In this document: piece by piece, positions 18,986 through 43,618 of the stretch
How positions within the stretch are numbered: position 1 is the stretch's first letter
Layout of the letters: each line of letters begins with the position of its first letter
Source of the DNA: a virus
Length of the DNA stretch: 64,000 nucleotides
Virus record (IMG/VR): IMGVR_UViG_3300027782_000040
Strand: one strand, 5' to 3'
Made by a program: the position numbers and the translations under genes
Notes under the pieces: model-generated
The model's input: the letters and a program-made list of their open reading frames with translations, nothing else
What the model was told of the DNA's origin: nothing
The model's database searches: none

Positions 18986-21900
18986 ATGATACAGAAGCAT
19001 AGAATATCCACAAACATTGGGAAGGACCAAATAGTCAATCTTGAATTAAAACAAGATTTTGATTTTTTGGAAGTTCTATCATTAAGATTCACTCAAAAGG
19101 ATGTTTATTCATCAATGTGTTCGGATTACGGTGTGGTATGTGGTAGAATTACTGTTAACAATGGTTTAGGTGTACCAAACGCCAGAGTATCGTTATTTGT
19201 TCCACAATTACAAATTCATTCAAATGATCCAGTTATATCTGCGTTATATCCATATACAGAAATTGGGGACAAAGACAGTAACAATTATAGATACAATTTG
19301 TTACCATCAAGAAAACAACATGGCGGACATGAACCAACCGGTACATTTTTTGACCAAGAAGATATTTTAACAAGAGAAGAAGTTTTAGAAGTGTATGAAA
19401 CTTATTATTCGTATACAGTTAAAACTAATAGTTCTGGTGATTTTATGATTTGGGGGGTTCCATTAGGACAACAAACAATTCACGTTGATGTTGATTTATC
19501 TGATATTGGTTGTTTCTCTTTAAGACCTGATGATTTTATTAGACAAGGTGCTGGTTTAGACCAATTTAAAACATCATACGCTTTTAAAGCATCAGAAGAT
19601 TTAAATTCGTTACCACAAATTGTTTCATTTGATAAAACGATTGAAGTTTATCCTTTTTGGGGTAATAATGATTTTTGTGAAATTGGTTTAACAAGAACTG
19701 ATTTTGATTTATCCGATAAAGGTGTAAGAATTGAACCAAAAGCAATTTTATTAGGTTCAATATTTTCTGACCAAGGGAATAGTACTGTAAATAAAAATTG
19801 TACTTTAAGAGATGGAATGGGTAATAAATGTAACTTAATAACCGAACCAGCAACGGTTGAAATATTAAGATTTACAAATAAAAAAGACGAAAATAATAGA
19901 CCAATATTGGAACTTATGGAAACAAGTGAAGATATTGATGATAGTGGTTCGTTTATGATTTCAGTTCCAATGAATATGGAATATGTTTACACAAACGAAT
20001 TTGGTGAGAACGAAATTACAAACGACCCAAATAAAGGGGTACCAACATCCGCATGTTATAGATTTAGAGTATCAACAAAAAATGAATCATTAGGTAGGGT
20101 TAGAACTGTAGCTTCTTATTTAATTCCAAATATTAGGGAATATGCAACAACGGAATCAGAAATTGATAAATCATATACTTGGTCAACAAATTGGAATGAT
20201 TATCCGACGGGGGCAACAAACAATAACATCCTTTTTAATAATGTTAATGGGTCATATTACCCACAAGATTATTTTTATAGATTTAATTATAATAAAATTT
20301 ATAGTGTATCGTCATTTTTTGGATCTTATAGTGAAGGTAATTTAGGGATTACACAAATAGCACCAAAGGAGGAAGACGATTGTCAAAACAATTCACTCAC
20401 ACCTCCAATTAATCATGCGACACAAACAGTTACCTTCGCAATTTTATTGGCTATAATATTGAACACATTCGAAAGAATAAGTTATTACACAATCATTGCG
20501 GCTATACAGGTTTTAATTGTTCCATTTCAAGCATTATATAATTGGCACATATACATACGTGCTTTAAAAGTAACATTGATAGATTATTATCCATTTAGGG
20601 CGGGTGGTATTATTGATGTTGATACTAAAGTTATTGAACCATTACAAAGATTCGGTACTGTTCGTTTAGGTATTGCAATATATCCTGAATGTGAAACATG
20701 TGACAACTTAGATTATATAAATGATTTGCCAACAACAACGACAGATCCAGAATTAACGTTTCTTAAAGTTGCAACAGGAACAGGTGTTACGGATACATCT
20801 TTATACGCCACATGTGGGGTTGAGATTTTTGACGAATCAAGTGTTAGGATATTTTTATCAATTCCAACTACTGGAACCACATGTGCATCCGTATCACCTA
20901 TCTTCACAACGACAGGTACCACTATAACTAATATTATTGATAATCCAGGTAGATACATTATAAAATTTAACGATACAGGAGAATATGGAAATCTTAGTGT
21001 TTATGGGTATGACATATCGGGATCAGGAACAACAGCATATTATTACGATGATACAACGGGTTTAAGTTATACAGGTCAAACATTACCGACAGGAAGTATA
21101 GGATATGAAATATTTGATTCACTATCATTTTTAATTGGAGGTTCAAATACTTCAGGATTAAATAGTGAATTAGAAGGAGGATGTCAACAATATGTTACCG
21201 TGTATAAAGAATCAATTGTTTATGGAACATATTGTGCTAGTAACGCATCTACACCATATAGTGGATTAACATCGGCAAATATAAAATTAGGTACTGTTTG
21301 TACCACAGGTATAACCGTTGGTCAAGTTATTGCTGGTGTTAATAGTAATCCTTGTGGTACATGTGGCACACACAGTGGATTTTCTGAATTTAGATATGGA
21401 TTATTTACAATTATACCGGCGGCGGCAATTGCCAATTGGGGAGATAATTTTGATGCAATTACCGAATACGCAAGAAGAAAACTTGTTGCTAAAGTGTTCT
21501 GTGGTGGTATAGCAAATTATAAATTTATTGACAATTGGTTGACCGGTTCATTATATATGTTTCCATTTAAAGCAAAAGTTAGATGGGATAATGAGGAAAC
21601 ATTAGATTTAAATGTTAGAAGAACAAAATATTGTCCAGATTTAGTTTATTTTAAAGCAGGTACGGTGGAAAATCCTGATAAAAGATTTTATTATAGATCT
21701 ACATATTTTAATGGTACAACATTTAGTAGAAGTAGTAGAGAAAGTTTAGGTCACCCAACAACAATTGTTGATTTAGGACCAAGAGATGAATTTATAAAAG
21801 AAATATGTGTGGACCCACAATTAGACCCAAACTGTTCGGTTGTTAGAGATATTGGACCAACATCCTATCAAAATTTTAAAGAGATGTTAGGGTTATATAT

Positions 21901-22801
21901 TAATTATAAATTAGATTATTTAGCAACAGACCAAAATACAACAGGTGATTACAATTCATTTTTTGAAAACAATGGATACGGTGTACCTGGAACGGTAATG
22001 AATGGGGACATTCTTCAACTAATTTCAATAAATAATGAAGTTGGCATTGAAGAATTTGATTTACAAAATAGAAATTACGCAGCATATAATCCACAAGTGT
22101 TGGATGTTGAACAATATCCTGGATTATTGGATGGAGGACCACTACCAATAAATCTCGTATTAGATGATGGTGAAGGATATAGAGTTAGGGCATGTTTAAA
22201 TGAACCCGGAAGATTGACTGAATCATCACAAAAAGTTCCATTTTACTTGTGGGAAAAAGGTGGTACAGGTTTTGGTTCGAGTGTTAATCAACATTGGGAC
22301 TATACTACACCAATCTCAACTGCAAATGGTAATTTACAACCATTACAAGGTATGACCTATAATTACAAATACAGTGGAGATACGACACACAAATATTTGT
22401 TATTACCAATGACAAAACAATATAGTGGTGATACGTTTACATATACAGGTGTAACATATAATGATGTGTATGCGGATATTGAAACAACAGGAGCAACACA
22501 TACAACTTATAATAATCAAGAAGAAGGATTCACAGTACTCGAAATTGCCACAGGCACATTAGATAATCCATTAACGGGAACACTATGGATTAGAACGGGA
22601 GAAACAAGTAATTGGGCATCAAAGGCATGGACAAACGACCTTGATTTTATGGTAAAACCAACATCAACAAATTACGATGGTACAAAACAAATACTATCAA
22701 CACCATTTCTGTTTTATTTTGGATTAAGACCAGGTAAAACCGCAATAGATAAACTAATAGAAAAATACGGACCAAAAGGTGCGTTCCCGTCTGCTGAATA
22801 A
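18986..22801 (+). CDS. Large baseplate-associated structural protein with an N-terminal beta-sandwich and an internal hydrophobic segment
   Basis: 1271 aa in the baseplate operon; GVPNARVSLF...TNSSGDFMIWGVPLG; S/T/G-rich middle. Confidence 0.65.
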   Translation: MIQKHRISTNIGKDQIVNLELKQDFDFLEVLSLRFTQKDVYSSMCSDYGVVCGRITVNNGLGVPNARVSLFVPQLQIHSNDPVISALYPYTEIGDKDSNNYRYNLLPSRKQHGGHEPTGTFFDQEDILTREEVLEVYETYYSYTVKTNSSGDFMIWGVPLGQQTIHVDVDLSDIGCFSLRPDDFIRQGAGLDQFKTSYAFKASEDLNSLPQIVSFDKTIEVYPFWGNNDFCEIGLTRTDFDLSDKGVRIEPKAILLGSIFSDQGNSTVNKNCTLRDGMGNKCNLITEPATVEILRFTNKKDENNRPILELMETSEDIDDSGSFMISVPMNMEYVYTNEFGENEITNDPNKGVPTSACYRFRVSTKNESLGRVRTVASYLIPNIREYATTESEIDKSYTWSTNWNDYPTGATNNNILFNNVNGSYYPQDYFYRFNYNKIYSVSSFFGSYSEGNLGITQIAPKEEDDCQNNSLTPPINHATQTVTFAILLAIILNTFERISYYTIIAAIQVLIVPFQALYNWHIYIRALKVTLIDYYPFRAGGIIDVDTKVIEPLQRFGTVRLGIAIYPECETCDNLDYINDLPTTTTDPELTFLKVATGTGVTDTSLYATCGVEIFDESSVRIFLSIPTTGTTCASVSPIFTTTGTTITNIIDNPGRYIIKFNDTGEYGNLSVYGYDISGSGTTAYYYDDTTGLSYTGQTLPTGSIGYEIFDSLSFLIGGSNTSGLNSELEGGCQQYVTVYKESIVYGTYCASNASTPYSGLTSANIKLGTVCTTGITVGQVIAGVNSNPCGTCGTHSGFSEFRYGLFTIIPAAAIANWGDNFDAITEYARRKLVAKVFCGGIANYKFIDNWLTGSLYMFPFKAKVRWDNEETLDLNVRRTKYCPDLVYFKAGTVENPDKRFYYRSTYFNGTTFSRSSRESLGHPTTIVDLGPRDEFIKEICVDPQLDPNCSVVRDIGPTSYQNFKEMLGLYINYKLDYLATDQNTTGDYNSFFENNGYGVPGTVMNGDILQLISINNEVGIEEFDLQNRNYAAYNPQVLDVEQYPGLLDGGPLPINLVLDDGEGYRVRACLNEPGRLTESSQKVPFYLWEKGGTGFGSSVNQHWDYTTPISTANGNLQPLQGMTYNYKYSGDTTHKYLLLPMTKQYSGDTFTYTGVTYNDVYADIETTGATHTTYNNQEEGFTVLEIATGTLDNPLTGTLWIRTGETSNWASKAWTNDLDFMVKPTSTNYDGTKQILSTPFLFYFGLRPGKTAIDKLIEKYGPKGAFPSAE

Positions 22802-24582
22802 TGGAAAAGAAACAAATCATATTACCAAGTAAAAAGTTCGCAAAGGCGGATGACCAAGAATTAGAATTAAAACTAAATCTTGATAATAGTGATACACTTA
22901 TGCGAATAGGTGAAAGGGATATAATATTAGATATAGATGAACAATATTATAAAGAACGTAATGAAAGTATAAATTATAAGATATACGGAAAATTAAAAAT
23001 GATTTTTAGAAATTTATATTCCGGTAGTACAGGTTCATATGAACCTTTAACGAAGAGTCTTTATTTAAATGGTGATGGTAGTGATAATAATTTCAATGGA
23101 TTTTTACCATATGATGAATTTGCATTTTTAAGAAGGGACGTTTATAGGGAAGTAAATTTACCAGTAACTGGAAATACAATAGGGACCTTTACACCAAATA
23201 TAGTAAAATCAGGATCAACGGCACACACAACTATAACACCAATATCGGCACCATATCAAAATTGGAATTTATATTTAAGTTATGTGTATAGTGGTGATAG
23301 TAATTTTAATATGGTTTATACGTTAACAGGTGTAACAGGTAGTACGAAAGTTAGTTTTACCGCTAAAGATGGTATACCATTTAGGGTTGTAAATTATAAC
23401 ACATACTATGAATTGACATCACCAGTTGAACATGGAATGAACGAAGGAGAACACGTGGTTTTATCAGGTGGAACGTTAACAGGATTATCAAACCCAACTG
23501 GTTCAACATTTTATATTAATTCAGTTGGTAATGAAACATTTGACTCTGGAAAATATGTTATTAATATTTTAAAGTCACAAATAAAAACAGGAACAACACT
23601 CAATACAATTATGTTAGGTAAAAGATGTAAAGATTTTACCAATATCGTTCCCTCAACATCTAAATATTACGTTCACAAACATAAAACATTAACTAACACA
23701 GGTGGATATATAATGGATTCACTTGGATTTGAAAGTCCAGTGTTTGAAGATGAGAAAAAATTGTTACTTGAAAATAGTGCAGGAATAAATGATGTTGTGG
23801 TTGAAAGAAATAGAATGGAATCTGTTTTATACGATTTTAAAGAACCATTTAAATTAAGCGGATTAACAAATAATTTAGGATTTAGTCCAACAAATGTTTT
23901 TGTTACTGCAATTTTTAGAAATGGAAATGGATATTTTAATTATCCACCAAAGGTTGGATATAAATTTAATTTCCACGATACGTGGATTGATGAACATTTT
24001 AGTGGAACTACGTCAAACGAAACAAGTTTAACAAGTTCTGGATTTACAAAAAGTGGAGTTACATTTTTAAGTGGTCAAACATTACCAATCGGTTCAATAT
24101 TAAATGGTGCCTTTGTTGAGTATAATCCAAAAGAAATGACCGAAAGAATTGTTAGTGAAGCATTTCATAAAATCACAAATCCCACAAATATATTTGACCA
24201 TAATCAAGATATGAATGTAGATGGTTTTAGTGGTGCCACATCTGGAAATACAATGGGATTAATATACCAACCACATTATAGAATTAAATTAAGAGAATTA
24301 TCACCATATACTGAAACGGCAAATACTAATGATATTTTCAACTTACCTGAAAATGCAAAGTATGACCCATATGATAAAGTTTGGAGATGGAGAGATATAT
24401 ATGACCATGGTTATGTTGATTCCGATGGATTCGGAACAGATTTTCCTTTTATGAATGGAAATCATTATGTTAAAGCAAACATTAATTTCTATTTAAGAAA
24501 TGAAAGATATTATAAAAATAAATCAAATGGAATAATGAATTTCATGGATGTAAATAATAAAAATAGTAATTCAGATTGTTAA
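22801..24582 (+). CDS. Structural protein (baseplate region)
   Basis: 593 aa; TAATG-coupled; [ST]GxT-rich. Confidence 0.6.
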   Translation: MEKKQIILPSKKFAKADDQELELKLNLDNSDTLMRIGERDIILDIDEQYYKERNESINYKIYGKLKMIFRNLYSGSTGSYEPLTKSLYLNGDGSDNNFNGFLPYDEFAFLRRDVYREVNLPVTGNTIGTFTPNIVKSGSTAHTTITPISAPYQNWNLYLSYVYSGDSNFNMVYTLTGVTGSTKVSFTAKDGIPFRVVNYNTYYELTSPVEHGMNEGEHVVLSGGTLTGLSNPTGSTFYINSVGNETFDSGKYVINILKSQIKTGTTLNTIMLGKRCKDFTNIVPSTSKYYVHKHKTLTNTGGYIMDSLGFESPVFEDEKKLLLENSAGINDVVVERNRMESVLYDFKEPFKLSGLTNNLGFSPTNVFVTAIFRNGNGYFNYPPKVGYKFNFHDTWIDEHFSGTTSNETSLTSSGFTKSGVTFLSGQTLPIGSILNGAFVEYNPKEMTERIVSEAFHKITNPTNIFDHNQDMNVDGFSGATSGNTMGLIYQPHYRIKLRELSPYTETANTNDIFNLPENAKYDPYDKVWRWRDIYDHGYVDSDGFGTDFPFMNGNHYVKANINFYLRNERYYKNKSNGIMNFMDVNNKNSNSDC

Positions 24583-24583
24583 C

Positions 24584-26395
24584 ATGAAAATATTAAGAAA
24601 AGATACTGATTTAAATATATTATTGAATACTGAAACTGATTTTCAAACAAATCTCGGTTGGGAAGAAAACTTGAAAGAATTTGAAACTGAAATATTAAGT
24701 GATATTATTAACCCAATTGAAAATTATGAAACGGTTAGATATATTCATAAACCATATACGTCTAGTGGAGTAACACAAACCGATATTTGGTTTTATTTTT
24801 ATTTTCAAAGCGGTGGAACATATGTTCAAGATTATACCCCACAAGGTATAAGTTCACAAGAAAATGAACATATGTTAAAACAGGCGACTGAGAGTTTTTT
24901 TAGATTAGAGTTTTTTAAAACACCAGGAACTGTATCAAGTAATATATTAACATGTGAACCACCAACAAGACAAAATAGAAAATTAATATTTGCAAAAAAT
25001 TTGTCATTACCGTTAGGTGAGAAAATGTTTTATAATCCACTTAATGGTTATATACATTTACCTGTTTTTAGAGGATCAAATTATAGTAATAAAGAAAATA
25101 TGTATTTCTTTTGGTTCCAAGATGAAAGTGTTTTAACTGAAACTAATTTAAGTGGTACAACAACAGGTAACACCTTCTTTATGACAGCAAAGTTTTATAA
25201 TGCAAAAGAAGGTACAATTTTAGATTTTACAAATGATTGTTACAGTACGGGTCACACTATTACTGAACAAAATGATATGTACTATCAAGTTGATATTAAT
25301 AAAACAGATTATTCGTATCAAGTTTATTATTACAATGGTGTAGTAAAATGTGAAGAAGTTGGTTTTACAAACAAACCAATAATGTTTTTTGAAAGAGGAG
25401 GTGGAACGGCACCAACTAACATAGTATATCACACATGTTCAAATGTAACACCTACACCGACACCAACTGCAACCCGTGTAGCAACACCAACACCAACTCC
25501 AACTCCAACACAAACTCAAACACCAAGTGGATCATCATCGGGACCAACTTATTATAGTGATGTTGTTGGTCGGAGCGCATCGTCAGTAAGTGATGCTTGT
25601 AGTCAAGTAAGTACAATTGGGGTTACGGGAAGTGGAACCTTATTCTGTAATTCGGCAACATTTACATCTACGGACGGATATTCAATGGGTACTGGAAATT
25701 ATTATTTATCAAACGGTTCAAAATATGTACAAGTATCACATACTATTTATACGAATCTATTTACTGTCATCGGTGGTGGTTGTACAACATGTCCTGGCGT
25801 AACAATATACGATTGGTACACACTTGAAAATTGTTGGGACCAAACTACTGGTTATACAACAGGTCTTACAGTAGGAACATATGCTGTAAATAATAGAGTA
25901 ACAACATTTTTAGATATTGGTACAATATGGAAAGTAATTGCAATTAGCTCAAGTAATCCGGCACCATTAATAAATAAAATATCTGTCGCACCAAGTTTAG
26001 ATTATTTTAGTGCAATACAAAATGGTTGTCCACCAATATTTGAATATTTTTTAAGTGATCCATATACAGGTACCACATTATTCTGTTCATCACCTGGTAA
26101 ATCAACTGGAACATTAATAAAAACGTTTTCACCTACAATATCAGAAATTTTAAATTATCCAGTTTATAATTCAAGTAAAGTTTTATTTGAAGGTGCGGGT
26201 AATGATTATAATTATTTTATTTCCACCTCTGCTGGTGTAAATTCATATACAAACGGTAGCACACCTTTAAGTAACAATAGAATATTAATAAAAATTGACG
26301 GTACAATAACAAACAACGGTGCAGGAACCCCTGGTTACGTTTTAGATGTATATTCAACACCTTGTAGTGGAGGTGGCGGAGGAGGAAACTTATAA
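24584..26395 (+). CDS. Structural protein with a PT linker and a variable Cys-containing C-terminal region
   Basis: 603 aa; [21 protein letters not shown] linker. Confidence 0.6.
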   Translation: MKILRKDTDLNILLNTETDFQTNLGWEENLKEFETEILSDIINPIENYETVRYIHKPYTSSGVTQTDIWFYFYFQSGGTYVQDYTPQGISSQENEHMLKQATESFFRLEFFKTPGTVSSNILTCEPPTRQNRKLIFAKNLSLPLGEKMFYNPLNGYIHLPVFRGSNYSNKENMYFFWFQDESVLTETNLSGTTTGNTFFMTAKFYNAKEGTILDFTNDCYSTGHTITEQNDMYYQVDINKTDYSYQVYYYNGVVKCEEVGFTNKPIMFFERGGGTAPTNIVYHTCSNVTPTPTPTATRVATPTPTPTPTQTQTPSGSSSGPTYYSDVVGRSASSVSDACSQVSTIGVTGSGTLFCNSATFTSTDGYSMGTGNYYLSNGSKYVQVSHTIYTNLFTVIGGGCTTCPGVTIYDWYTLENCWDQTTGYTTGLTVGTYAVNNRVTTFLDIGTIWKVIAISSSNPAPLINKISVAPSLDYFSAIQNGCPPIFEYFLSDPYTGTTLFCSSPGKSTGTLIKTFSPTISEILNYPVYNSSKVLFEGAGNDYNYFISTSAGVNSYTNGSTPLSNNRILIKIDGTITNNGAGTPGYVLDVYSTPCSGGGGGGNL

Positions 26396-26404: not shown

Positions 26405-27280
26405 ATGAAAAGAATTAACCATACCATTAAAAGAAAAAAAATACCTGAAGTGAAATTAGTTTCATTAACAGGTAAGACATGGTACGATTCAAATAATAAC
26501 CCAACACCATGGACGGGTGACACTGAATTTTTAGTTACAGGTTTTACACCCGACACAGGTTATGTTGTTTATAACGTAACCGGTGGAACTGTAGATGGTG
26601 GTTATTATTATAAATGGAATACACCAACAGAAGACACATGGAATTTAATTGTTGGTACAGGTACGACAGAACAAGAAATAGAAACCCATGTTAATAGCCA
26701 AATACATGAAGATTTTCAACTACCATTATTTTTAGAAGCAACGGCTGATGAAATGGGAGATATGGTTGATTTTGATAAAAATATTGGACATAATGAAATT
26801 AGTGCAAACTTCGCATATGAAAGTGTTTGTACTGAAACTGGTAGTACAATAACAATTAACAACACAACAACATATCAATTAGTTAATATAATTTTGGCTA
26901 ATGATACGAATCCAGACGGAACAACGAATGTAACGAGTGTTAGAAGATTGGCTACAGAAATATCCGAACAAAATGTTTTAGACGAATTAGAAGATTTTTT
27001 AGTGGTTGATGGACAAGATTTTTCAATATCGGGATCATCATTTACGGTACATTGGGGAGACGAAACAACATCACCAATTGGAATTAATGGTAGTGTAACA
27101 AAATCATTTGATGTTGCCGAAGAAAAAACAATTAGAATAGTTTTTGAGTCACCATATTTAACAAATCAAGTGGTTAAAGTTGTTAATTGTGGTGAAACTG
27201 CAGTGAGTTACATGAGAATTAATACCGAAAACAATGACCCTATTCAAAGTGAAAATAATAATTACATAAATGTCGATTAG
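26405..27280 (+). CDS. Structural protein with a PKD-like domain
   Basis: 291 aa; FTVHWGD PKD-type motif; C-terminal INTENNDPIQSENNNYI. Confidence 0.55.
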   Translation: MKRINHTIKRKKIPEVKLVSLTGKTWYDSNNNPTPWTGDTEFLVTGFTPDTGYVVYNVTGGTVDGGYYYKWNTPTEDTWNLIVGTGTTEQEIETHVNSQIHEDFQLPLFLEATADEMGDMVDFDKNIGHNEISANFAYESVCTETGSTITINNTTTYQLVNIILANDTNPDGTTNVTSVRRLATEISEQNVLDELEDFLVVDGQDFSISGSSFTVHWGDETTSPIGINGSVTKSFDVAEEKTIRIVFESPYLTNQVVKVVNCGETAVSYMRINTENNDPIQSENNNYINVD

Positions 27281-31259: not shown

Positions 31260-34200
31260 ATGAGTATAACCGGAGGTACATTCAGTGTTGATTGTTTAAT
31301 AAGTGATGTCTCATCATCAACAAACGATTGTGGAGTTCAAAAAACTTTAACATGGTCTAATGCTGGTACCAAATCAAATATACAAAGTTATTTCTTCAAT
31401 TATAATCAATTAAATAACAAAATTCCGGTTTATGTTTTCATAAAACCAAAAGTCAAAAAGTTATTTAAATTTACATTCACACCAGGTTCAAATAACGGTT
31501 CAAATATTACTATTAATATTAATCAAAAAATAAACGGTGTTTATACGTTAGTAGATGTTGAAAATTTAAATACGCTATCTACTGAGACTTCAAAATATAT
31601 TACACTTTATTTTGATGAAAATAAAAATGATGACATTTCACTAACTTTAGATATCATTACATCAGGTGGAACGAGCGGACAAATGTATTGTGAAATTGAT
31701 TGTGACCCTGCAATAATAAGTGCTGAATTTTGTACTGGATTTACGAACTCAAATTATTATTGTACAACATGCCCAACAGTTGTAAAATTATATAGAGCTA
31801 AAACACCTAATTTACCACCAATAAATGGTATTTTGAATATTAATTCTGGATTTAGTAATTTCTCACCTTTCACAACAGGACCTTGGTATTTGGATAATGG
31901 ATTAACAATTGAAGCACCTTCAGGTGTAACATATTCTTATGCTTCTGGAGATATTGCAAAAAGATCAATATACACATATAATCCATCTACACATTCTTTT
32001 ATATTACAATCAAGTTGTTTAGGAAGTAATTCAAATTGCGGGGGAGATGTTATTTTAACACATAATTTAAGTGGATATACATATTCTCATCCATACATAC
32101 CAACTAAAAGCGAATTACCAAGTAATGGTTTAAAATACTCAATACAAGATTTAATTATAACTTTAGATAGTTCAAATAAAATTGTACCTATAACAATTTC
32201 AATAACGGGACAATGTAAAGATGCTTGTTTTACTATTTCTGATGGTGTTAATAATAGTCACGCTGGTAATGTAAGTTATACAGATAATTATTCAGCAACT
32301 CCACCATATTTTGTTAAAGTAACTGATTACACATCTTTAAAAGTTCAAATGACAAATATTGGTACACGTGGAATAACCGCGGTAACAAACAGTGGTCAAA
32401 TAAGAATAAGGGTTGCAATTGGACAATCAAAATCATATAATGGTTCTTCTGTTGTAACTAAAATTTCAGTTGGTTGTGGAACTACAATTTTTGGGTATGA
32501 TATGGGAGTACATCCATATTCAGCGTACGATTCATATAATAGTCCAACCGCGGTAACTAAATTATGGTCATATAATAATATTAGTACATGGTCAGGTTCA
32601 ACAGATAATTACTCAACCAAAGGTACATGCGTTTATAATGATGTTTTATTAACAAATTTAGCATTACCATATTATTATGCCGATAACATTAGAACATCTA
32701 ACACAAACAAAGTTTATGAAATAGGTAATATATTACAAAGAAACTTTGGAACACATACAGATTATAAAATAACTAAAAAAGCATTTGGACCTAGAAAAAC
32801 ATCACCAATAGTTTCAGGACCTAAAGATTTTACAAACCTTAAAAATAGAGGTGATGAAGTTTTAATATCGGGAGAAAATTTAATACCTACATCAATTGAA
32901 CCAACAATGAACGGTATTGGTTTAGTACGTAAAATATTATCAACATCAGATTATTATCAACCTTCAGTTTACAAATATTATTTAGGTTATACCTCAGGAT
33001 TTACTGAGTCTAATTCTAATGATACATTCTTCACTACTTGGAATTTTTCAAATTCTACAGCTAAACCATTAACTGGATATCAACATATGTTAATGAAATT
33101 ATCTGCAAGTTACATAGGTGGTACAAACGTACCAGATTTAATTAATTTATTAAAAGATGATAAAAGAGTTGAAGCTGGTTTTATGGGTGCTGCCGTATCA
33201 AGTTTACTTCTTGCTTGTGCAGGTTATCTTCCTGTGGCAGAGGGATTGTCACTTTTTGCATCATTTTTTTTAACTGTACCTGGATTATTGGTACTCGCTT
33301 TTGCTTATTTAGCGGTAAAGTTTATTGTGGATGCATTAAAAACACAAAATATAACAATTAAAGAAAAGTTCACATATTTTTACACTAGATATGCAACAAC
33401 ACCATATCTAACAACTGGAACAACAATTTATAAAACAAGTACTTTAACAACATGGAGTACGGGTATATATAATGACGGTGCATATTTTTACAATATTCCA
33501 TCAAATTCAAATAATGGTAAACCAACTACAAAAACATTATCATATTCTACAAATGATGGTATAAGAACAAATTCATTTGATGTTATTAATACAAGTAAAA
33601 TAAATTATATTACAGATTTTCATAGTTTATTTTTTTTAAGTTATGTTTCAGGTTATCCTGTTAAATTTAATACAAACCCAACATTATATTCAAGTAATTC
33701 ATTATCAATAACTGTATCGGCGGAAACTTCAAATATCGGTGATTTAAACAACCCAATACCTGTTGTGTATTCTTTACCTTCGGGACATTCTGTTTCAACA
33801 ATTTCACAAGAAGATGCGGATAGTAAGGCCGCAGGTTTTCTTTCTTCATTAACAGGTAATACAATTAGTTTATCATCATATGAAGAAAAACCAGGAATTG
33901 TTGACGTACAATTAAATTTCACACACGAAATTAAAAATGAAAACATACCAAATGTTTTTATTTTGAATTATGATAATTCGGATGAAAATGGAATTACAAT
34001 TGGTAAAAAATTATATTATGATTATAATGGTAAGTCCACAGTATTAAATGGTTATTATTCATTGGTAGGTACTTCACCATATAGAACCATATATAAAACA
34101 GTAAATGGTGTTGTTACAGATATACTTACATGGCAAAACAGTAATGAAAATTATGTCACATCGGTAACAACTGGAACAGGTGCAACTATAAATACACTTT

Positions 34201-37200
34201 TAGATTATACAAGTGAATGGTATATAGGTTCTACGAATCATGAATTAATAAATTTGAATTATACTAATAATCAAGATAGTTTAATAACAAATTGGAATAC
34301 AAATACATTTTACTCTGGAACAACAACAGGTGTCACAGTTAATAAAGGTTTTACAAATTCATTGGCAGCACCCACCGAACTTTATTTTTATGACGATAAT
34401 TTAACGGGTTTAACTTATAATGTGGCAGATGATGGAAAATATAAAGCAATTTATCCATTTAATAGTTTAATTTTCACATATCGTAATCCTTTTACGATTT
34501 TAATTAATGCGGAAGAAATTAGTGACCTCGATAATGATGATAACGGTATTAATTTTTATTTAACCGATATTAGTGGTAACACTGTACCATCATATGTTGG
34601 TGTTACTTTTAATGTTAATATTTTTACAGGGTCAACGAGTTTACTTTCATCTGAAAGAATAACAATTGATTCAGATGAAACGAATCAGTTTTTATATTTA
34701 AATATTCCTCAAACAGGAGGCACACTAACGTCATACAACATAACAAGTTATGAATCTGAAAACCCATTTGATAAAATAACTTTTATTCAAAGTGGATTTA
34801 CACAAAGTACAGGTGTAACTACTTGTCCGTATTATACGGGAACAACATATATTGTCGATTCATATGGTTATGTACAATACAATAGATTTAATACGATTAA
34901 TAATGGTTTTATAACTGAAGTTATTTATGTCTCTGAGGCTATATATGAAATTACAGACCCAATTCAATATCAATCATTAGTTCCTGTTGTAGATACTGAA
35001 ACGTATTATCCACCCGCAAATATTAGAATTTTAGAAACAGGAGTTTGTTATGTCGTACCAACTCCAACTCCAACCCCAACAATAAGTTTAACCCCAACAC
35101 AAACAGGAACACCAACTCCTACACCAACAGTAAACTGTTCATTCGGTGTTAGCATTGTAATATTAACTCCAACCCCTACTCCAACAGGAACAGGAACCCC
35201 AACACCTACTCCGACAATAACTTTAACACCAACAGGAACAGGAACACCAACTCCTACACCAACAGTAAACTGTTCATTCGGTGTTAGTGTTGTTGTATTA
35301 AGTCCAACACCTACTCCTACACCAACTGGTACCCCAACTCCTACACCAACAATAAGTTTAACACCTACAATAAGTTTAACACCAACAGGAACTCCAACAG
35401 GTACTCCAACAGGGACACCAACAGGAACGCCAACTCCTACACCAACTCCTACACCAACAATAAACTGTTCGTTCGGAGTGAGTATAGTGGTATTAAGCCC
35501 AACCCCAACCCCTACTCCAACAGGTACTCCAACAGGAACACCAACACCAACACCAACAATTAGTGTTACACCGACAATTAGTGTTACTCCAACTATTAGT
35601 GTTACACCAACTGGAACACCAACTGGTACACCAACTGGTACACCAACTGGTACACCAACTGGAACACCAACTCCAACACCAACAGTAAATTGTTCATTCG
35701 GCGTTAGTGTGGTCGTATTATCACCAACCCCAACCCCTACACCAACAGGAACACCAACCCCTACACCAACAATTAGTTTAACGCCGACAATAAGTTTAAC
35801 CCCAACAATTAGCTTAACGCCAACAATTAGTTTAACTCCAACAATAAGTTTAACACCAACAATAAGTTTAACACCAACAAGAACTCAGACACCTACACCA
35901 ACAGGAACACCAACTGGTACCCCAACACCAACGCCGACAGTCAATTGTTCGTTCGGTGTCAGCATTGTTGTATTAAGTCCAACCCCAACACCAACAGGAA
36001 CACCAACAAAAACTCCAACACCAACTCCAACACCAACTGGTACACCAACAGGAACACCAACTGGTACACCAACAGGAACACCAACCCCTACACCAACAAT
36101 TAGTTTAACGCCGACAATAAGTTTAACCCCAACAATTAGTTTAACTCCAACAATAAGTTTAACACCAACAATAAGTTTAACACCAACAATAAGTTTAACA
36201 CCAACAAGAACTCAGACACCTACACCGACACCAACTACATCGTTACCGGCATTAACGGTATCGGTAAGTTCAAGTACATTACAATCATGCTATAATGTTA
36301 GTGATGCATCATTTACATTAAGTGCGAGTGGTGGTAATGGTGCGTCATATGAATATTCCAAAGATGGTACAACATACCAAGCAAGTGCAACATTTAGTTC
36401 ATTAGCGGGTGGTACATATAATGGTTATGTTAGAAATACAAATAGAACTGGAACTGTTGCATCAGTTTCAGTTGGAAGTTTAGTAAGAACAGCACCAAAT
36501 GCAACAATAACGGTTACAAATGTAAGTTGTAATGGTGGAGCTGACGGACAAATTGCAGTAACATCTGGTACGGGTGGAACAGGTAGTGGATATAGTGGAT
36601 CAACAGATGACGTTACATATTTTGCATTACCAAAAATATTCTACACATTAACTCAAGGTTCTTATGATGTATATATTAAAGATAGTAATGGTTGTAAACA
36701 ATCTTACGCACAAACAATCACACAACCAACAGCACAAGTATGTAATATTTCAGTATATAGTTATGATACCGGAACAGGAGATGGTCAAATCGCTGTGGTA
36801 GTTTCAGGAGGAACAGGACTTAAAACTCTTAAATTGTATCAAGATACATCTACACCATATAGCGACTACTCAACTGATACATTAATACAAAGTGGCACTT
36901 CTGTCGCTAATAATACAACATATTATTTTACAAATGTACCTTGTGCAGCAACTAGTCTTTGGGTTCAATGTACGGACGCAAATAATTGTGTAATACATTC
37001 TAATACGTCGGTTAAAACTTGTGGATATTTCCAAACGTTTCCAGGAACATTTAAACTTGGTAATAACTTAACGTGTACACCACAATCGCCATTTAGTAGA
37101 ATTTACTTAGGTTCAATTGACTATAGTAATTTTGTTGCAAATGGTGGTATGTTAAGTACTGGAATGGTATTATATACCGATGGTAGTGGTACCATTTATA

Positions 37201-37286
37201 CATTTAACACAATTTATGATTCTACCTCTACAAATATATACAATGTATCGTCAGGTGTTGTTGGAGGAGTTAAATCACTTTGTTAA
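31260..37286 (+). CDS. Giant adhesin-like structural protein with a hydrophobic hairpin, a DUF5977-like motif, a mucin-like PT tract and SprB-like repeats
   Basis: 2008 aa; [12 protein letters not shown]; PT repeats; [15 protein letters not shown]...DSNGC...ITQP. Confidence 0.7.
35057..36240 (+). repeat. Pro-Thr mucin-like coding repeat punctuated by five (V/I)NCSFGVS(I/V)V(V/I)L units
   Basis: Units TP, TGTP and TISLTP; Cys units start at 35130, 35265, 35460, 35685 and 35940. Confidence 0.95.
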
Positions 37287-37337: not shown

Positions 37338-38045
37338 ATGCCAGCAGGACCAATAATCGGAACATCTCAAGTTAGTTTACAATTAACAGGGGGATCATCA
37401 GTACCAAATAACTTTACTGTCGATATATATTCATGGGACGTTGCAACCGACGTCGCAGTTTATAATAGAACTATCATTACGGGTTTAACAAGAACAGCAA
37501 CATCGGCGGTAAATGGAGGTTCATTAGCCGTATCACCATATTATGGGATTACAGGCATAACAGGTTTAGATAACTATGTTAAATTAACCAGTACAACTTC
37601 ATGTAGTACAACTACAACACAAGATATCACAAGTGCAGCATTAACGGTATACACCCCCAATTCAGGAACATTAACTGAAGATTATCCATCAGGGGCGGAA
37701 GATAGCTTTGCCACCACTGGTATGGGTGCCGGCACTTTATCTCCCGGCTCACATCAAGTTGCACAACTCACAACATTATCTTATTTAGACGCGGCCGATT
37801 TTACTTTGAGTTATTTAAGTGGAACCACCGTTTCCACTGGTTTAGTAGTTGGAGGTGCATATACATATGGACCATTTAGTAGTTTTTCTGTAACAAAATC
37901 GGGTAAAGTATTTTCATTATTTGGGTCGGCAAATACAAGTTTAAGTGCACTAAATAGTAGTATACATGGTGTTATGAGGTTAACATACAATCCTTCAGGA
38001 TATTATGTTAATTTTAATTATTATTATGTACCAACTTCACTTTAA
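37338..38045 (+). CDS. Hypothetical S/T/G-rich structural protein
   Basis: 235 aa with its own TATTTATA motif. Confidence 0.6.
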   Translation: MPAGPIIGTSQVSLQLTGGSSVPNNFTVDIYSWDVATDVAVYNRTIITGLTRTATSAVNGGSLAVSPYYGITGITGLDNYVKLTSTTSCSTTTTQDITSAALTVYTPNSGTLTEDYPSGAEDSFATTGMGAGTLSPGSHQVAQLTTLSYLDAADFTLSYLSGTTVSTGLVVGGAYTYGPFSSFSVTKSGKVFSLFGSANTSLSALNSSIHGVMRLTYNPSGYYVNFNYYYVPTSL

Positions 38046-38125
38046 TCTATCCCTTTATTTACATTAAATTAATCTTTATATTACCTAAAACCTAATAAAG
38101 ATATTTATAGGTGTAAATAATTTAT

Positions 38126-38683
38126 ATGTCAGATTTATTTGGAAGTATGTCTTTTTATGTTCCGTCTTACCCAATGTCGGGTGAAACACAATCTGTAGTA
38201 ATACAAAATTATTTAAACGATTATGAATATACCCCAACAACGGGATATACCACAACAGGTTTTACTTATTTAGGTATTGGAGGTAGTAAGTTATCCGAAT
38301 TAAAAAAATACGGAGCAACAGGATATACACAAACATTAACAAGTGGATCAATAACAGGAGGAACAACTTGGACGGGTTATACATTTAATTATACACATAA
38401 TACCACTGGTTCCACAAGTTTACAATATAGAGATTATTCTGACGGGTACACCATGATTACAGGTAGCACTACAGGGTTTACCAAGGAGGAAGTGATTAAC
38501 TATACCCTGACAAGAAACGAGCATTTTTTGGGGTTTGTAGAACAACCAACCGTTTATTCTGACATTTTTGTGGAACGAGGTAAATTGGGAGTTATGGAAA
38601 GGAACTTCAGGTTAAGTGAAATTGATAGTATGGGTGAATTGAGTATATATGGAAATGGGTATTTTAAAGTTAGAAAACAATAA
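38126..38683 (+). CDS. Structural protein (possibly the separated C-terminal half of 26405..27280)
   Basis: 185 aa; conserved-looking C-terminus SDIFVERGK...RLSEIDSMGEL..YGNGYF. Confidence 0.6.
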   Translation: MSDLFGSMSFYVPSYPMSGETQSVVIQNYLNDYEYTPTTGYTTTGFTYLGIGGSKLSELKKYGATGYTQTLTSGSITGGTTWTGYTFNYTHNTTGSTSLQYRDYSDGYTMITGSTTGFTKEEVINYTLTRNEHFLGFVEQPTVYSDIFVERGKLGVMERNFRLSEIDSMGELSIYGNGYFKVRKQ

Positions 38684-38708
38684 GATTTATATTTATTAAT
38701 AAAAGAAA

Positions 38709-39617
38709 ATGGCAGTAGGATCATATGGTATTGTAAGACCCGCAGACGTATCACCAGCAGACGTAGAGATATTATATCATTACGTTTCGGGTAGAACTGC
38801 GAACGTTACACCAACATTAACAAAATTAGATTCCACAGCAATATTAACACCGGTATTTCATAATGAAAATACAGGTGGTGTTGCAAATAAAGAAATTTTA
38901 GGTGGTTTATATAATCTGAAATTACAAGCGGGTCAATTCTCTGATTTGGGAATTTACACATTACATTTACGTCCTAAACAAGTTAGAACAAATATTATGG
39001 ATTGTGGAGTTTTAGCGTCACTTCCATCAGTTAGAGGTTTAGTCATTGACATTGGTAATGTACCGGTTGACGACCAAGGAAAATTCACACCACAAGGATT
39101 AGTTGGATATAGAATTGAATATATTAATAAGACCAATTACCAAAAAGTTCCAAACTTTTATAGATTGGTAACTTCATCTTTTTATTGTGTACCAACTACT
39201 GCAAATTTATCAAACTCAACAGATAAGGCGATTAGGTATCAATATACCGATTCCCAATCTAACTTTATATTTTTAACAGTAACACCAAGTTCATCACCAT
39301 CAAGTAGACCAAATGTGGTTCCATTTATCGGTGAACCAGGTCAAACTATTATTTTAACAAATACATTCTTCAACCCAACAACGGTTGAAATTGAAATGGT
39401 TGAACATGACGCATCAACATTGGCACACGCACTTTACGGTGACCAAACTAAGGCAATTGCTCCAGGTATTTACACTATCTACGATAAGGATAAGAATATC
39501 TATAAACAATACAATCTTTATGAAATTAAAGACCAATTTAACGAGACATTATATGAAGTTCGTGAAGAAAGAACAAGTATTGATGAAACATTAAATTTAG
39601 ATAACATAACAGGATAA
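38709..39617 (+). CDS. Conserved-looking structural protein (baseplate region)
   Basis: 302 aa; GLYNLKL...GIYT pattern; late motif upstream. Confidence 0.6.
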   Translation: MAVGSYGIVRPADVSPADVEILYHYVSGRTANVTPTLTKLDSTAILTPVFHNENTGGVANKEILGGLYNLKLQAGQFSDLGIYTLHLRPKQVRTNIMDCGVLASLPSVRGLVIDIGNVPVDDQGKFTPQGLVGYRIEYINKTNYQKVPNFYRLVTSSFYCVPTTANLSNSTDKAIRYQYTDSQSNFIFLTVTPSSSPSSRPNVVPFIGEPGQTIILTNTFFNPTTVEIEMVEHDASTLAHALYGDQTKAIAPGIYTIYDKDKNIYKQYNLYEIKDQFNETLYEVREERTSIDETLNLDNITG

Positions 39618-42079
39618 TGGCTAAAGTAAGATATAAAGTTCCAAGTGAAGCTGCTAGTGGTGTAGAAACATTTAGTGATAAATTAGTCGGCACACAGATT
39701 ACTGATGGTACTAGTCAACTGACTAATACGAACTTTGATATTAATAGAGTCATTCCTGAAAAAGATAGTAAGGATTTTAAATCACAACCTTTTTCTGATT
39801 TCTTAACATTGAAAGATTTAAAGGAAGAATTAAGTGCCGCAACCACACAAAATGGTAGAGCAAAGAAAAAAGAAAAAATTAAATTTAAAGGTGGAATTAA
39901 TGATGCTGGTAAATCTTTATATGGTTCATTAAAACAAAGATTACAAGTATCAATATCAGATATTATTACAAACTTTCCTGCCGCAATATTAGTTGATAAA
40001 GATAGTCCCATTAAAAGTGTTGACGTCACATTATCAGGAATAACATATAGTGAAAGCGCAAAGACAACTGATTTTTATATTCAGAAATCAATTTTATTTA
40101 ATCCGTTTGATATTACACTTATTAAACCATTAAGTAATACTTTACCGACAACTGATAACACAATAAGAAATTTTTATTCTTCATATACAAAATATGTTTT
40201 AGTTTATAATAATCTAACATATGATATTGTTTCATATACCGAACCTAACGCATTAAATTTAATTAAATTAAAAGTTAAAGGAAAACCATTCACAGGTTCA
40301 ACAATAAACGATAGTGTTTTAATAAGACCAAATGATGGAATTACCGAAGAATTTTTTAGTGGGTTAGATGAATTAGAAACTCTTTTATTAAATAGAGAAA
40401 CTAATCCAAAATATCAAGCAAGTTTTAAAGTACCGAAAGATAGTTTAGATGAAACTAAAACTGAAATCGTTAATGTATATGTTAATTGGCCAACAACAAA
40501 AGATGGTTGGAATTTACAAATTGTTGGTATTGATTATGCAGATTACATTAGTCAATTAAGTAGTTTAGGTGATGAGATTGATGATTACAAATCTAATTTA
40601 ATTATAAGATTTTTAACCGCACCACAATTATTTGAGTTTGATACGGATGACCAAAAAGCACAATCAATATTTCAATTATACGGTCAGTCATTTGATAGAG
40701 TAAAAAAATATATAGACAATATTGCTTACATGCGTAATGTAAGTTATGATGGAATAAATAATGTTCCCGATGTGTTATTGAAAAATCTTTCACAAACACT
40801 AGGACTTACAACTACAAATCTATTTGATGAAAAAACATTAGAGGATACATTATACACTAGACAAAATAGTGTATTTGATGGTTTATTAGTTGGTAAGACA
40901 TTAATAGAGGCGGAGTATGAATTTTATAGAAGATTATTAGTTAACCTTACTCATCTATATAAATCTAAAGGAACTAGAGTATCTATAGAATTTTTCTTAA
41001 AATTCTTAGGTGCACCTGAACCAATGATTAAAATTGAGGAACACGTATACAATGTAACAAAATTACCAAACAATCCTAATTTAGAAACCGATTTATATGA
41101 TGTAATTCAAGGAACAAAAGTTGATACTGTTATTACAGGAACAACTGCAGTTACGGGAAGTATTTTTACATATTATAGTGGAGGAACAACAGGATTAACA
41201 AGTGGATATACGTTTGCAACTGGTTCAGTTACAAGTTCATCAACATTAAGTAGAGATGAATATCCAATTGATGAAAATGGATTACCAAGAAAAACAACAA
41301 ATTTATCTTCAGACATATTTTTCCAAAAAGGTTCAGGATGGAATGATTTAACTTTAGAACATAGGTCTAGTACAATTATTGATACGGATTTATCTAGTGG
41401 ATCATTTGTCAATGGAGTTTTTCAATTAACAGGTAGAACTAAAACCATTAAAACAAAATCAAAAGATTATACATACGGAGAAGAATATTTTGATAATTTT
41501 AGAACACTACCAGGATTAGACTATGGGTTTAACATTAAAGGTTCAATAGATAATAAAAAGGCATCTGTTGTTACTGACGATGACTCATCTAAATTAATTC
41601 TTAATAGAAAAAATATTAACATATATCTATCACCGTCACAAACTATTGATTATGACGTCTATAGAAGATCAAGAAATAATAGTAAAACATTTGGTAATTT
41701 AACACCTCAAACAGGAGTAACATTTGAAGAGTTTTTAATATCCTCTTTAAGTAAAGTAATAACAAATTCAAATAGTATTAAATTTAGTAAATCATACAGT
41801 GGATTAACAAATGTTTTTTATGATTATTCCACTAACACCGGATTCACCCCATATAACTTCACATCGGTTAATGAGTTTATAAACAAAATGAGTCCGTCAT
41901 GGTTAAAAGTTGTAGAACAATTTGTTCCATCAACTACATTATGGACAGGTGGAAACTTAATTGGAAATAACATTTTTAATAGGTCAAAATACGATTATAG
42001 AAAACCAAGATATGGTATACCTATTACAGGTAGCACAACTTATGATAGTGTAACATTTAATTGTGAAGAAATAGAATAA
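39617..42079 (+). CDS. Baseplate wedge protein (gp7 / P2 gpI-like)
   Basis: VPDVLLKNLSQTLG and LYKSKGTRVSIEFFLKFLG. Confidence 0.7.
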   Translation: MAKVRYKVPSEAASGVETFSDKLVGTQITDGTSQLTNTNFDINRVIPEKDSKDFKSQPFSDFLTLKDLKEELSAATTQNGRAKKKEKIKFKGGINDAGKSLYGSLKQRLQVSISDIITNFPAAILVDKDSPIKSVDVTLSGITYSESAKTTDFYIQKSILFNPFDITLIKPLSNTLPTTDNTIRNFYSSYTKYVLVYNNLTYDIVSYTEPNALNLIKLKVKGKPFTGSTINDSVLIRPNDGITEEFFSGLDELETLLLNRETNPKYQASFKVPKDSLDETKTEIVNVYVNWPTTKDGWNLQIVGIDYADYISQLSSLGDEIDDYKSNLIIRFLTAPQLFEFDTDDQKAQSIFQLYGQSFDRVKKYIDNIAYMRNVSYDGINNVPDVLLKNLSQTLGLTTTNLFDEKTLEDTLYTRQNSVFDGLLVGKTLIEAEYEFYRRLLVNLTHLYKSKGTRVSIEFFLKFLGAPEPMIKIEEHVYNVTKLPNNPNLETDLYDVIQGTKVDTVITGTTAVTGSIFTYYSGGTTGLTSGYTFATGSVTSSSTLSRDEYPIDENGLPRKTTNLSSDIFFQKGSGWNDLTLEHRSSTIIDTDLSSGSFVNGVFQLTGRTKTIKTKSKDYTYGEEYFDNFRTLPGLDYGFNIKGSIDNKKASVVTDDDSSKLILNRKNINIYLSPSQTIDYDVYRRSRNNSKTFGNLTPQTGVTFEEFLISSLSKVITNSNSIKFSKSYSGLTNVFYDYSTNTGFTPYNFTSVNEFINKMSPSWLKVVEQFVPSTTLWTGGNLIGNNIFNRSKYDYRKPRYGIPITGSTTYDSVTFNCEEIE

Positions 42080-42100
42080 TAATATAAATATTTATAACAT

Positions 42101-43618
42101 ATGAGCTTTTTAAATACAGGATATTCAGCAACGGTCGCAGCAAGATTAACACAAAAGGGTAGAAACTCTATTGCAAAAGGTAATTTTGTGGTAAGTTACT
42201 TTGCTGTGGGGGATTCTGAATACAATTATAATACAGGAACAACTCAAAATATATTATCACCATTTGACAAAGATAGTCATGTAAAATACCCAATTTGGTA
42301 TACAAGTGGAAGTACATTTTTTGGAATACCGGTAGATAGTTCAAATACCACAATATGTAGGAATTTGGTCACAGCAAATAGTGATTGGACATTAAGTACG
42401 GTTTGGGATAAAAATCCGATTGGATTATCAAATATATATACATCTAATGCGTATGTTGGGGTTAAAAATTTATTAGGTTATTCATCATCTTCAGGACAAA
42501 CATATAATACAGGAACAACAATATATGACACTACTGGAACTCCGGTAATCATTTCACCTGAAGAACAAAAAGCAATTGCAATATTACATTATACACAGAG
42601 CGGAACCACTGGAGACCCTTATAGGTTCTTTAAATATGATGATTACATCTGTATTGATAATACATCGGGTCAAACATCGTTTAATGTGACATTGACCTCA
42701 ATTATGTATCACAGATTAACGGGAGCAACATCGGGAGCAACATTTACTATGGGAACCGTTGATAAAAAAATGGTATCTAATTACAACTCAAGATATGAAT
42801 TACCATATAGAGATTTAGTAGATTATGCTGGTAATACGGTTGGTAAAATATTTCACAATCAAAAACTTGTAGTATTTGATGATGAGGAAATTGTTGCAGC
42901 ATTAGACACAGGATCAACGAGAAATTATACATTAACAGCACCAAAAGTGGATACTTTAGTAACAACTAATTACCCAATTACTGGATTAACAACAACAGGT
43001 AAAACTATGTGGGTTACGTATAAATTTAGTGGAGGTACAGTATCTGATGATTTACCTTGTAATTATTTTATGAAAGTTACAGGGTCAACAAATGATGAAA
43101 ATGTTACTGTTAAATTTAGTAGTGGTGGATTTAAACATTTAAATAATGGTTATACTGCAACTCAATTTCATATATTACATCAATTAACAGATAACGGAGT
43201 TCAACCAACACCAAATAATTGGAAAATTAGGGATTACACAAGTGACTTAAGCGCAATCAATGATTTAAAAACCGGATTTACATTTACAATCAACCAAACC
43301 AAAATCACCGAAGCCATTGCAGTAGGAAATTATTCATCTTCATTATCAGGTTTTGGTGTAGATAGAGCGTTGTCTGGTGGAACTATTACAGGCACGGTTG
43401 CATTGGTAAGGTCAAGTGATATTGAAGAAATGGTCTTTAATTTAAATCTACCCGATGGTAAATTCACAACATCCCAAAACCCAACATTTACAGGTACATC
43501 TAAAATAACAGAAGTGGCTTTACTTAATTCTAATAAAGAAACATTAGCAATGGGTAAATTATCGTCACCAGTAACAAGAAGTGGTAGTCAGGTAATCCAA
43601 GTTAAAATTGATTTCTAA
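42101..43618 (+). CDS. Baseplate / tail-fibre attachment protein
   Basis: ARLTQKGR...FAVGDSE at the N-terminus; ITEVALLN...AMGKLSSPV at the C-terminus. Confidence 0.65.
   Translation: MSFLNTGYSATVAARLTQKGRNSIAKGNFVVSYFAVGDSEYNYNTGTTQNILSPFDKDSHVKYPIWYTSGSTFFGIPVDSSNTTICRNLVTANSDWTLSTVWDKNPIGLSNIYTSNAYVGVKNLLGYSSSSGQTYNTGTTIYDTTGTPVIISPEEQKAIAILHYTQSGTTGDPYRFFKYDDYICIDNTSGQTSFNVTLTSIMYHRLTGATSGATFTMGTVDKKMVSNYNSRYELPYRDLVDYAGNTVGKIFHNQKLVVFDDEEIVAALDTGSTRNYTLTAPKVDTLVTTNYPITGLTTTGKTMWVTYKFSGGTVSDDLPCNYFMKVTGSTNDENVTVKFSSGGFKHLNNGYTATQFHILHQLTDNGVQPTPNNWKIRDYTSDLSAINDLKTGFTFTINQTKITEAIAVGNYSSSLSGFGVDRALSGGTITGTVALVRSSDIEEMVFNLNLPDGKFTTSQNPTFTGTSKITEVALLNSNKETLAMGKLSSPVTRSGSQVIQVKIDF

Follow-up and report, generated by a model that had tools for sequence, protein, structure and literature searches.

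The four-residue word [ST]-G-x-T (Ser or Thr, then Gly, a free residue and Thr) is densely repeated in the virion proteins encoded by a 64,000-nucleotide stretch of viral DNA, IMG/VR record IMGVR_UViG_3300027782_000040, which we refer to in its entirety as the window. This word is a clade-specific short linear motif under selection for high density on exposed, variable tail surfaces. In the tail apparatus it is found on exposed and fast-evolving parts, i.e. outer sheath domains, peripheral baseplate and fibres, and its carriers are uncultured myoviruses of ~335-350 kb distantly related to Flavobacterium phage immuto. A sequence-only reading of the window had proposed that the word is a phage-wide sequon for modification, glycosylation in the first place. 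We tentatively retain the idea of a modification sequon, with O-glycosylation as the leading candidate and a putative enzyme as its reader, and give it somewhat less than an even chance.

In the 14 virion open reading frames (ORFs) of the window (9841 amino acids, the collagen-like ORF being left out of the set), [ST]-G-x-T occurs 124 times, against 21.4 +/- 4.6 expected from whole-protein shuffles. When residues were shuffled within 12-residue blocks, the expectation was 31.3 +/- 5.2, with a maximum of 46. The enrichment thus persists after composition-matched shuffling, global and local, and the two types of shuffle together rule out a composition artefact. The 32 non-virion ORFs of the window contain the motif 3 times, 3.3 being expected. 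The manual counts of the sequence-only reading, which gave the fraction of [ST]G dipeptides continuing into the full motif, were all reproduced: 9/10 at 38126-38683, 15/20 at 22801-24582, 15/23 at 42101-43618 and 6/8 at 26405-27280. The further clusters that it had named were also recovered, with 8, 13, 9, 9, 22 and 11 motifs in the ORFs starting at 2026, 18986, 24584, 29630, 31260 and 39617, respectively, and its two controls are free of the motif as claimed: the ribonucleotide reductase, an enzyme (14180-16450, phrog_367), with 0/11, and the gp6-like inner baseplate wedge, a conserved virion protein (17099-18931, phrog_219 and phrog_6), with 0/4. In an unbiased scan of all three-residue gapped patterns in the 14 virion ORFs, TG.T and SG.T (the dot standing for x) rank just below Thr-Pro linker patterns, TPT and PTP being the strongest three-residue excess of the block. 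T.T and T.T.T are in excess as well (122 against 22 for T.T.T).

The word has a strict grammar. Ser and Thr are equivalent at position 1, while position 4 is strictly Thr: Ser at this position shows no excess ([ST]G.S, 16 found and 15 expected). Within the same ORFs AG.T, NG.T, DG.T and GG.T are near or below 1x, placing A, N, S, T or D at position 2 gives no excess, and neither does reversing the motif (28 against 21 expected). The motif is asymmetric and cooperative: without Ser or Thr in front, G.T shows no enrichment. At x, Pro is almost absent (2 against 12 expected). The flanks are little informative: Tyr, Leu, Ile, Trp and Thr are preferred at -1, Phe and Tyr at +4 and Asn at +5, and charged residues are depleted at -2, -1 and +5. 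Hydrophobicity at -1 is not coupled to hydrophobicity at +4 (28 against 30.9 expected), and there is therefore no single hairpin template. At the nucleotide level, all 124 hits are in frame, compared with at most 4 in every other frame or strand; the Ser codons of the motif come from both the AGY (AGT) and TCN families, and codon use is that of the background. Since the word exists in frame only and is not tied to particular codons, a DNA-level repeat or motif is ruled out, as the sequence-only reading had maintained.

Many relatives of the window are present in IMG/VR, among them the motif-rich genomes G002, G013, G014 and G017. G014 measures 335,630 bp with 400 ORFs and is estimated to be complete, and G017 measures 353,143 bp and has terminal repeats; the group therefore consists of uncultured phages of ~335-350 kb. 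G002 (IMGVR_UViG_3300044633_003049; 211,784 bp) has replication genes 97-100% identical to those of the window and motif-rich genes 57-89% identical. It is classed as a provirus in IMG/VR; its G+C content is 27-38% over the whole length, its gene content is that of a phage, and no host flank is evident. The closest cultured relative is Flavobacterium phage immuto, with a recombinase identity of 42%. The protein families searched are large, with 375 homologues for a 185-residue protein and more than 1000 members for a 593-residue protein, both described below; for one distant homologue, P0251, no relatives were found in IMG/VR.

In G014, nine of the 400 ORFs are significantly enriched, containing 96 sites where 13 are expected, and the remaining 391 together contain 107 where 104 are expected. 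All nine are located at ~131-204 kb, and the tail/baseplate block (143-204 kb) accounts for eight. The carriers are the tail sheath, a phrog_8510 virion protein, peripheral baseplate proteins and fibres. With 3 sites where 0.6 are expected, the capsid protein shows only a weak signal, and the terminase and an adjoining ORF of 609 amino acids, possibly the portal, are not enriched. Nor are the collagen-like fibres of the window and G002, despite their richness in Ser, Thr and Gly. In the G002 sheath, 11 sites are spread over residues 127-645, all outside the conserved C-terminal core. Thus, "phage-wide" was too broad a term for a signal that lies in tail, baseplate and fibres, is weak in the capsid and involves nine of 400 ORFs. 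What stands is that the enrichment is convergent in non-homologous virion proteins, acts at the protein level and is restricted to the exposed, variable parts of these proteins.

We compared loci across clades by the ratio of observed to expected motifs, anchoring them on a conserved 302-residue protein of the virion block (38709-39617) that is not enriched (1 motif against 0.3 expected) and is 46-98% identical across clades. In the window clade most ratios are 5-11, with a full range of 2.8-11. The ratio is 2-4.7 at loci of 59-61% identity, for the most part 2-6 in clades further away (1.2-7.8 overall), and only 0.5-1.9 in one sister clade (L135-L141). To this sister clade belongs G007 (66,453 bp), which is syntenic with G002 from a glycosyltransferase block to the fibres and is essentially motif-free. 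The sheath, 51% identical over its full length, has 0 sites in G007 and 11 in G002; the corresponding numbers are 0 and 6 for the long tail protein, 1 and 8 for a protein of 1900 residues, 1 and 14 for one of 575, 1 and 9 for one of 318, and 0 and 12 for one of 920. Identities of these G007 orthologues with 0-1 sites span 27-51%. Most orthologues on the distant contigs L132 and L134 are likewise essentially motif-free. At 17 of 47 ungapped aligned positions, G007 already has the Gly, with other flanks (DGLE, GGNV, NGDF, AGQT), so turns that were there before acquired Ser/Thr and Thr as new flanks. In loci L191-L213, where the 302-residue protein is 46-52% identical, the same fibre ORFs also show a 2.3-3.6x excess of [ST]-A-x-T, which the window clade lacks. 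At these loci the enrichment is found only in ORFs downstream of the 302-residue homologue, and the 600-residue baseplate homologue is motif-poor. These comparisons point to a motif grammar that drifts between clades and, because the distant clades enrich [ST]-A-x-T too, to recognition of a "small residue" as a better fit than a Gly-only backbone angle.

Density is kept while positions change. The window has 70 sites and its G014 orthologues (39-59% identity) 83, yet a position is shared in only 26 cases. Among closer relatives single sites are gained and lost, yet every relative stays enriched. The densest carrier of the window, a baseplate protein of 593 residues (22801-24582), has 15 motifs where 0.7 are expected. 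Among the matches listed, its full-length homologues at 25-55% identity have 0-9, and those at or below 35% identity have 0-5, many having none. When it was aligned with distant homologues (23-42% identity), the site at residue 74 was common to 20 of 49 and that at residue 263 to 7 of 49; the other 13 of the 15 sites are clade-specific and stand in columns that are gap-prone (0.29 against 0.12) and of low conservation (0.32 against 0.46).

A confident AlphaFold2 (AF2) model of the 593-residue protein (predicted local distance difference test, pLDDT, 83.6; predicted template modelling score, pTM, 0.81) places eight of the 15 sites at strand/turn borders, two within strands and one at the end of a helix, the others being in loops. 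In this model, the motif has no single structural context. Foldseek returned no match for this model, and VIA returned only a generic small beta-barrel at residues 189-284 (Z ~7). The AF2 model of the 185-residue protein was too poor for use (pLDDT 54). Motifs are irregularly spaced, from 3 to more than 500 residues apart, and the excess is small in other beta-rich virion proteins (1.7x in immuto and, from per-protein counts, ~1x in the virion block of G007). Thus, the folds do not need the motif. A beta-helix, beta-solenoid or fibre repeat required by the fold is ruled out by the irregular spacing, the sister-clade orthologues without the motif, the turnover of sites (26 of 70 positions shared) and the mixed contexts; this includes the regular beta-solenoid turns that the sequence-only reading had set against its own proposal.

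The virion block of the window is a co-directional run of large orphan proteins plus one collagen-like fibre; all its genes, and the two controls above, are on the plus strand. Searches of PHROG and Pfam assigned no family to the motif-rich ORFs. The window opens in the C-terminal part of a long tail protein (1-1713), mildly enriched with 3 motifs against 0.5 expected; its G002 orthologue of 1586 residues has 6 against 1.6, and that of G007 none. An orphan tail/baseplate protein of 1921 residues (2026-7791) has 8 against 1.4, no PHROG match and a G007 orthologue with 1. Beyond the gp6-like wedge, which is 95-99% identical in the closest relatives and 74-82% in more distant ones and is adjoined by a 152-residue ORF (16639-17097) that is not enriched, a baseplate protein of 1271 residues (18986-22801) has 13 motifs against 1.8, every one after residue 400; its G002 orthologue differs in the C-terminal part and has just 2. 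The 593-residue protein follows, with 1 motif in its G007 orthologue, and then two orphan virion proteins, of 603 residues (24584-26395; 9 against 1.7) and of 291 residues (26405-27280; 6 against 0.5). In the latter, none of the six motifs lies beyond residue 150, and conservation is 73-100% at motif positions, compared with 41-87% elsewhere in the protein.

The collagen-like tail fibre (27319-29664; phrog_5073, phrog_1806) is not enriched: only 2 of its 94 [ST]G dipeptides form the motif, 8.4 being expected. It has 781 residues, 21.8% of them Gly and 25.7% Ser. On either strand long alternative ORFs overlap it, e.g. 28062-28865 (minus) and 28154-28975 (plus); they are probably frame artefacts of the repeat. 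A collagen or Gly-x-y origin of the motif is ruled out, given that the collagen-like fibres are not enriched and that AG.T, NG.T, DG.T and GG.T stay at ~1x. Next come a 439-residue orphan virion protein (29630-30949; 9 against 1.8) and a fibre-type protein of 2008 residues (31260-37286; 22 against 8.0); Thr-Pro linkers are indicated by its Thr content of 17.7% taken with the TPT/PTP excess of the block. A 235-residue orphan virion protein (37338-38045) is weakly enriched (3 against 1.2).

The 185-residue protein (38126-38683) has two parts: an N-terminal one that is variable and laden with motifs, and a C-terminal one of ~55 residues that is conserved and has none. In its family the motif columns T39-G40-T42, G84-Y85 and T109-G113-T115 are near-invariant, and insertions in homologues bring extra TGYT or TGFT. 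Many of the homologues (P0007-P0020) have ~320 residues, with an extra N-terminal domain bearing a WGDG signature, and the form in the window is a short version. Past the 302-residue anchor are a fibre-type protein of 820 residues (39617-42079; 11 against 1.1), whose G007 orthologue has no motif in 920 residues, and a distal fibre-type protein of 505 residues (42101-43618; 15 against 1.4). The latter is fast-evolving, being only 57% identical to its counterpart in G002, a genome whose replication genes match at 97-100%.

We then consider what would read such a word. In the mechanism that we propose, existing turns and loops, often D-G, N-G or G-G turns, were converted to [ST]-G-x-T; sites are quickly gained and lost while their number is held; and one trans-acting reader would recognise the four-residue word on many unrelated proteins. 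A single reader would be the simplest mechanism because many unrelated proteins converge in parallel on one asymmetric word. It would be a putative enzyme that acts on a hydroxyl in the motif, either ahead of assembly or in the course of it. O-glycosylation is the leading candidate reaction, and the enzyme would recognise its site by the small residue at +1 and the strict Thr at +3. The asymmetric, cooperative word and the [ST]-A-x-T of distant clades favour a trans-acting reader over backbone geometry. What we infer here is the existence of a reader, its enzymatic nature and a glycan as the modification.

As the sequence-only reading had stated, no glycosyltransferase was found in the window, a few small ORFs not having been scanned. 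Three conserved glycosyltransferases are encoded in close relatives, at the place that corresponds to the region upstream of the window. The G002 block consists of a 406-residue GT-B enzyme (phrog_7162; 201971-203191), a dUTPase, PhoH, a 354-residue GT-B enzyme (206033-207097) and a 259-residue GT2 enzyme (from 207099 on), and it adjoins virion genes, ~3 kb from a 713-residue virion protein and 15 kb from the sheath. The 354-residue GT-B resembles AmGGT (PDB 8xsg, E 4e-6), and Agt homologues of AmGGT extend peptide-linked glucose chains (PMC12159676). This likeness is suggestive. A search of the three enzymes against NCBIfam was uninformative. Elsewhere in G002, a large cluster at positions 21,000-42,000 (L037-L038) contains at least seven glycosyltransferase-like genes, including one for a 998-residue protein with a GT1 domain.

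Several observations weigh against a glycosylation sequon. The three glycosyltransferases are present in every sufficiently long relative, the motif-free G007 included. There, they are 44-45% identical to those of G002 in genome searches and 41-44% by BLASTP, align over their full length, conserve the DDE motif of the GT2 and are apparently intact. Because all three are found in the motif-free clade, enzymes and motif do not co-vary, and the co-variation across related phages that the sequence-only reading had named as a check failed to appear for these three. The 21-35 kb part of the larger G002 cluster is shared with immuto (49-60 kb) at 29-65% identity, and immuto has no strong motif enrichment; this cluster does not track the motif. 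If four bare residues were all that a promiscuous cytoplasmic enzyme recognised, other proteins should to some degree avoid the motif, yet there is no such avoidance in non-virion proteins (15 against 18.5). No alternative word is enriched in G007 (best z ~5), no GT41 or GT61 enzyme was found in five relatives, tblastn against INPHARED with two motif-rich proteins as queries found no cultured relative, and a literature search on the motif strings and on glycosylated phage sheaths returned no relevant paper. The glycosylation reading, still a candidate, thus loses its genomic support. The scenario in full would be a clade of giant Bacteroidota-type phages whose tail apparatus is coated with a modification, in all likelihood an O-glycan, placed at a new sequon [ST]-G-x-T (x not Pro) that is rewritten on exposed loops in the manner of the glycan-shield sequons of animal viruses. 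Its reader would either be an enzyme other than the three conserved glycosyltransferases or have changed specificity in the motif-free sister clade. In this complete form we regard it as plausible but rather doubtful.

Known systems resemble this one in part. Mycobacteriophages reportedly O-glycosylate their virions with phage-encoded glycosyltransferases (work of Freeman et al. in 2023), the capsid and tail-tube subunits being modified without a defined four-residue sequon. Own cytoplasmic glycosyltransferases, here those of the relatives, and a signal limited to exposed virion proteins are common to both; there, modification is chemically proven, whereas here it is a candidate, the carriers are sheath, baseplate and fibres, and the enzymes do not co-vary with the motif. 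The N-x-S/T sequons that form the glycan shields of enveloped eukaryotic viruses use the oligosaccharyltransferase of the host endoplasmic reticulum. They too are short degenerate words with a free middle residue that excludes Pro, found on exposed variable surfaces and turning over at a kept density. Chemistry and machinery differ, N-x-[ST] is not enriched in the virion proteins of the window (143 against 158 expected), and a bacteriophage is under no antibody pressure. General O-glycosylation in Bacteroidota, the likely host phylum, also uses a three-residue sequon, D-[ST]-[AILVMT], and is periplasmic; this word is mildly depleted in the virion proteins (26 against 43 expected, z -2.8), and the periplasm is not the site of virion assembly. 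The autotransporter heptosyltransferases TibC/AAH act on Ser at beta-helix turns, a cytoplasmic modification of hydroxyl residues on short turns between beta-strands, as it could be here. Their substrates are regular beta-helix repeats, unlike the irregularly spaced motifs of the window; no enzyme of this type was seen, in searches none of which was aimed at one. In Clostridioides difficile, SgtA adds beta-O-linked N-acetylglucosamine to the Thr of Gly-Pro-Thr collagen triplets of BclA3 and accepts Ser too (PMC7157674). There, a Thr two residues after Gly is the acceptor of a soluble, metal-dependent glycosyltransferase, which matches the G-x-T core of the motif. The motif differs in lying outside collagen repeats, as the collagen-like fibre of the window illustrates, in needing a preceding Ser or Thr and in not accepting Ser at position 4; no SgtA-type enzyme was identified.

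The main rival to a modification sequon is a surface motif that works without any modification: a tight Gly turn, capped by hydroxyls and flanked by aromatic or aliphatic residues, that could provide weak multivalent binding to polysaccharides of the host or environment, or resistance to proteases or aggregation on exposed tail surfaces. Requiring no enzyme, it fits the absent co-variation with glycosyltransferases and the absent avoidance in enzymes. Aromatic and hydroxyl residues are typical of carbohydrate-binding surfaces, and here Tyr, Leu, Ile and Trp are enriched at -1, Phe and Tyr at +4, and x is often aromatic in the 185-residue protein. Eight of the 15 sites in the model of the 593-residue protein stand at strand/turn borders, and the enrichment is strongest in distal fibres and confined to fibres in distant clades. 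Such a motif offers no ready explanation for position 1, where the usual turn-capping residues Asp and Asn are excluded and even replaced, and it leaves the strict exclusion of Ser at position 4 unexplained. The local structural contexts are mixed, Ala can stand for Gly in distant clades, and the beta-rich virion proteins of immuto and G007 show little excess. We take this rival seriously, while judging it somewhat improbable.

The word might instead be a neutral by-product of Thr-rich surfaces, turn preferences and the shuffling of Thr-rich modules between fibre genes, with no selection on the word itself. Thr makes up 9-18% of motif-rich proteins, compared with 5-8% in most G007 orthologues; T.T and T.T.T are in excess and Thr-Pro linkers are present; and some proteins share local similarity, e.g. 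[ST]GQTLP.GSI in the ORFs at 18986 and 22801. We nevertheless find it unlikely: the excess survives shuffling within 12-residue blocks (124 against 31), the word is asymmetric and cooperative in that G.T requires the preceding Ser or Thr, the Ser/Thr/Gly-rich collagen-like fibres of the same phages are not enriched, and orthologues hold their density though most positions differ. Many tail proteins might also use the word to dock a phage protein, either an assembly chaperone or a decoration protein, the latter having been raised in the sequence-only reading. Such docking would account for the restriction to virion proteins and for one common reader. With hundreds of sites per virion in heterogeneous local structures, positions that turn over fast, and only four residues, too few for specific protein docking, this account is very improbable; no candidate partner was seen, and no tool result directly supports it.

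The window, whose G+C content is ~31%, comes from a large myovirus. Beside the gp6-like baseplate wedge and the ribonucleotide reductase, it encodes a DnaB-type helicase, a UvsX/RecA-type recombinase, a single-stranded DNA-binding protein (SSB) and an exonuclease. The SSB, recombinase, exonuclease, DnaB-type helicase and ribonucleotide reductase form a cassette (8048-16450) between the tail genes (2026-7791) and the wedge (17099-18931), and the order of this replication and nucleotide-metabolism cassette is kept in G002, G007 and G014. Downstream of the virion block are a protein with a TnsA-like endonuclease domain (listed at 46948-47802), an Eco57I-type N6 DNA methylase (49590-50897) and a sigma-70-type factor with regions 2 and 4 (55153-55968).

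Should [ST]-G-x-T prove to be a sequon, glycosylation of phage virions would for the first time have a defined acceptor word, and bacterial viruses would have their own counterpart of the evolving glycan shield. Such a sequon would bear on how the tail meets host polysaccharide, proteases and receptors. Even without modification, these phages offer a natural experiment, in which two syntenic clades have the same tail proteins and one of them independently rewrote dozens of surface loops to one word. This contrast between the clades points to a strong, still unnamed selective pressure on tail surfaces.

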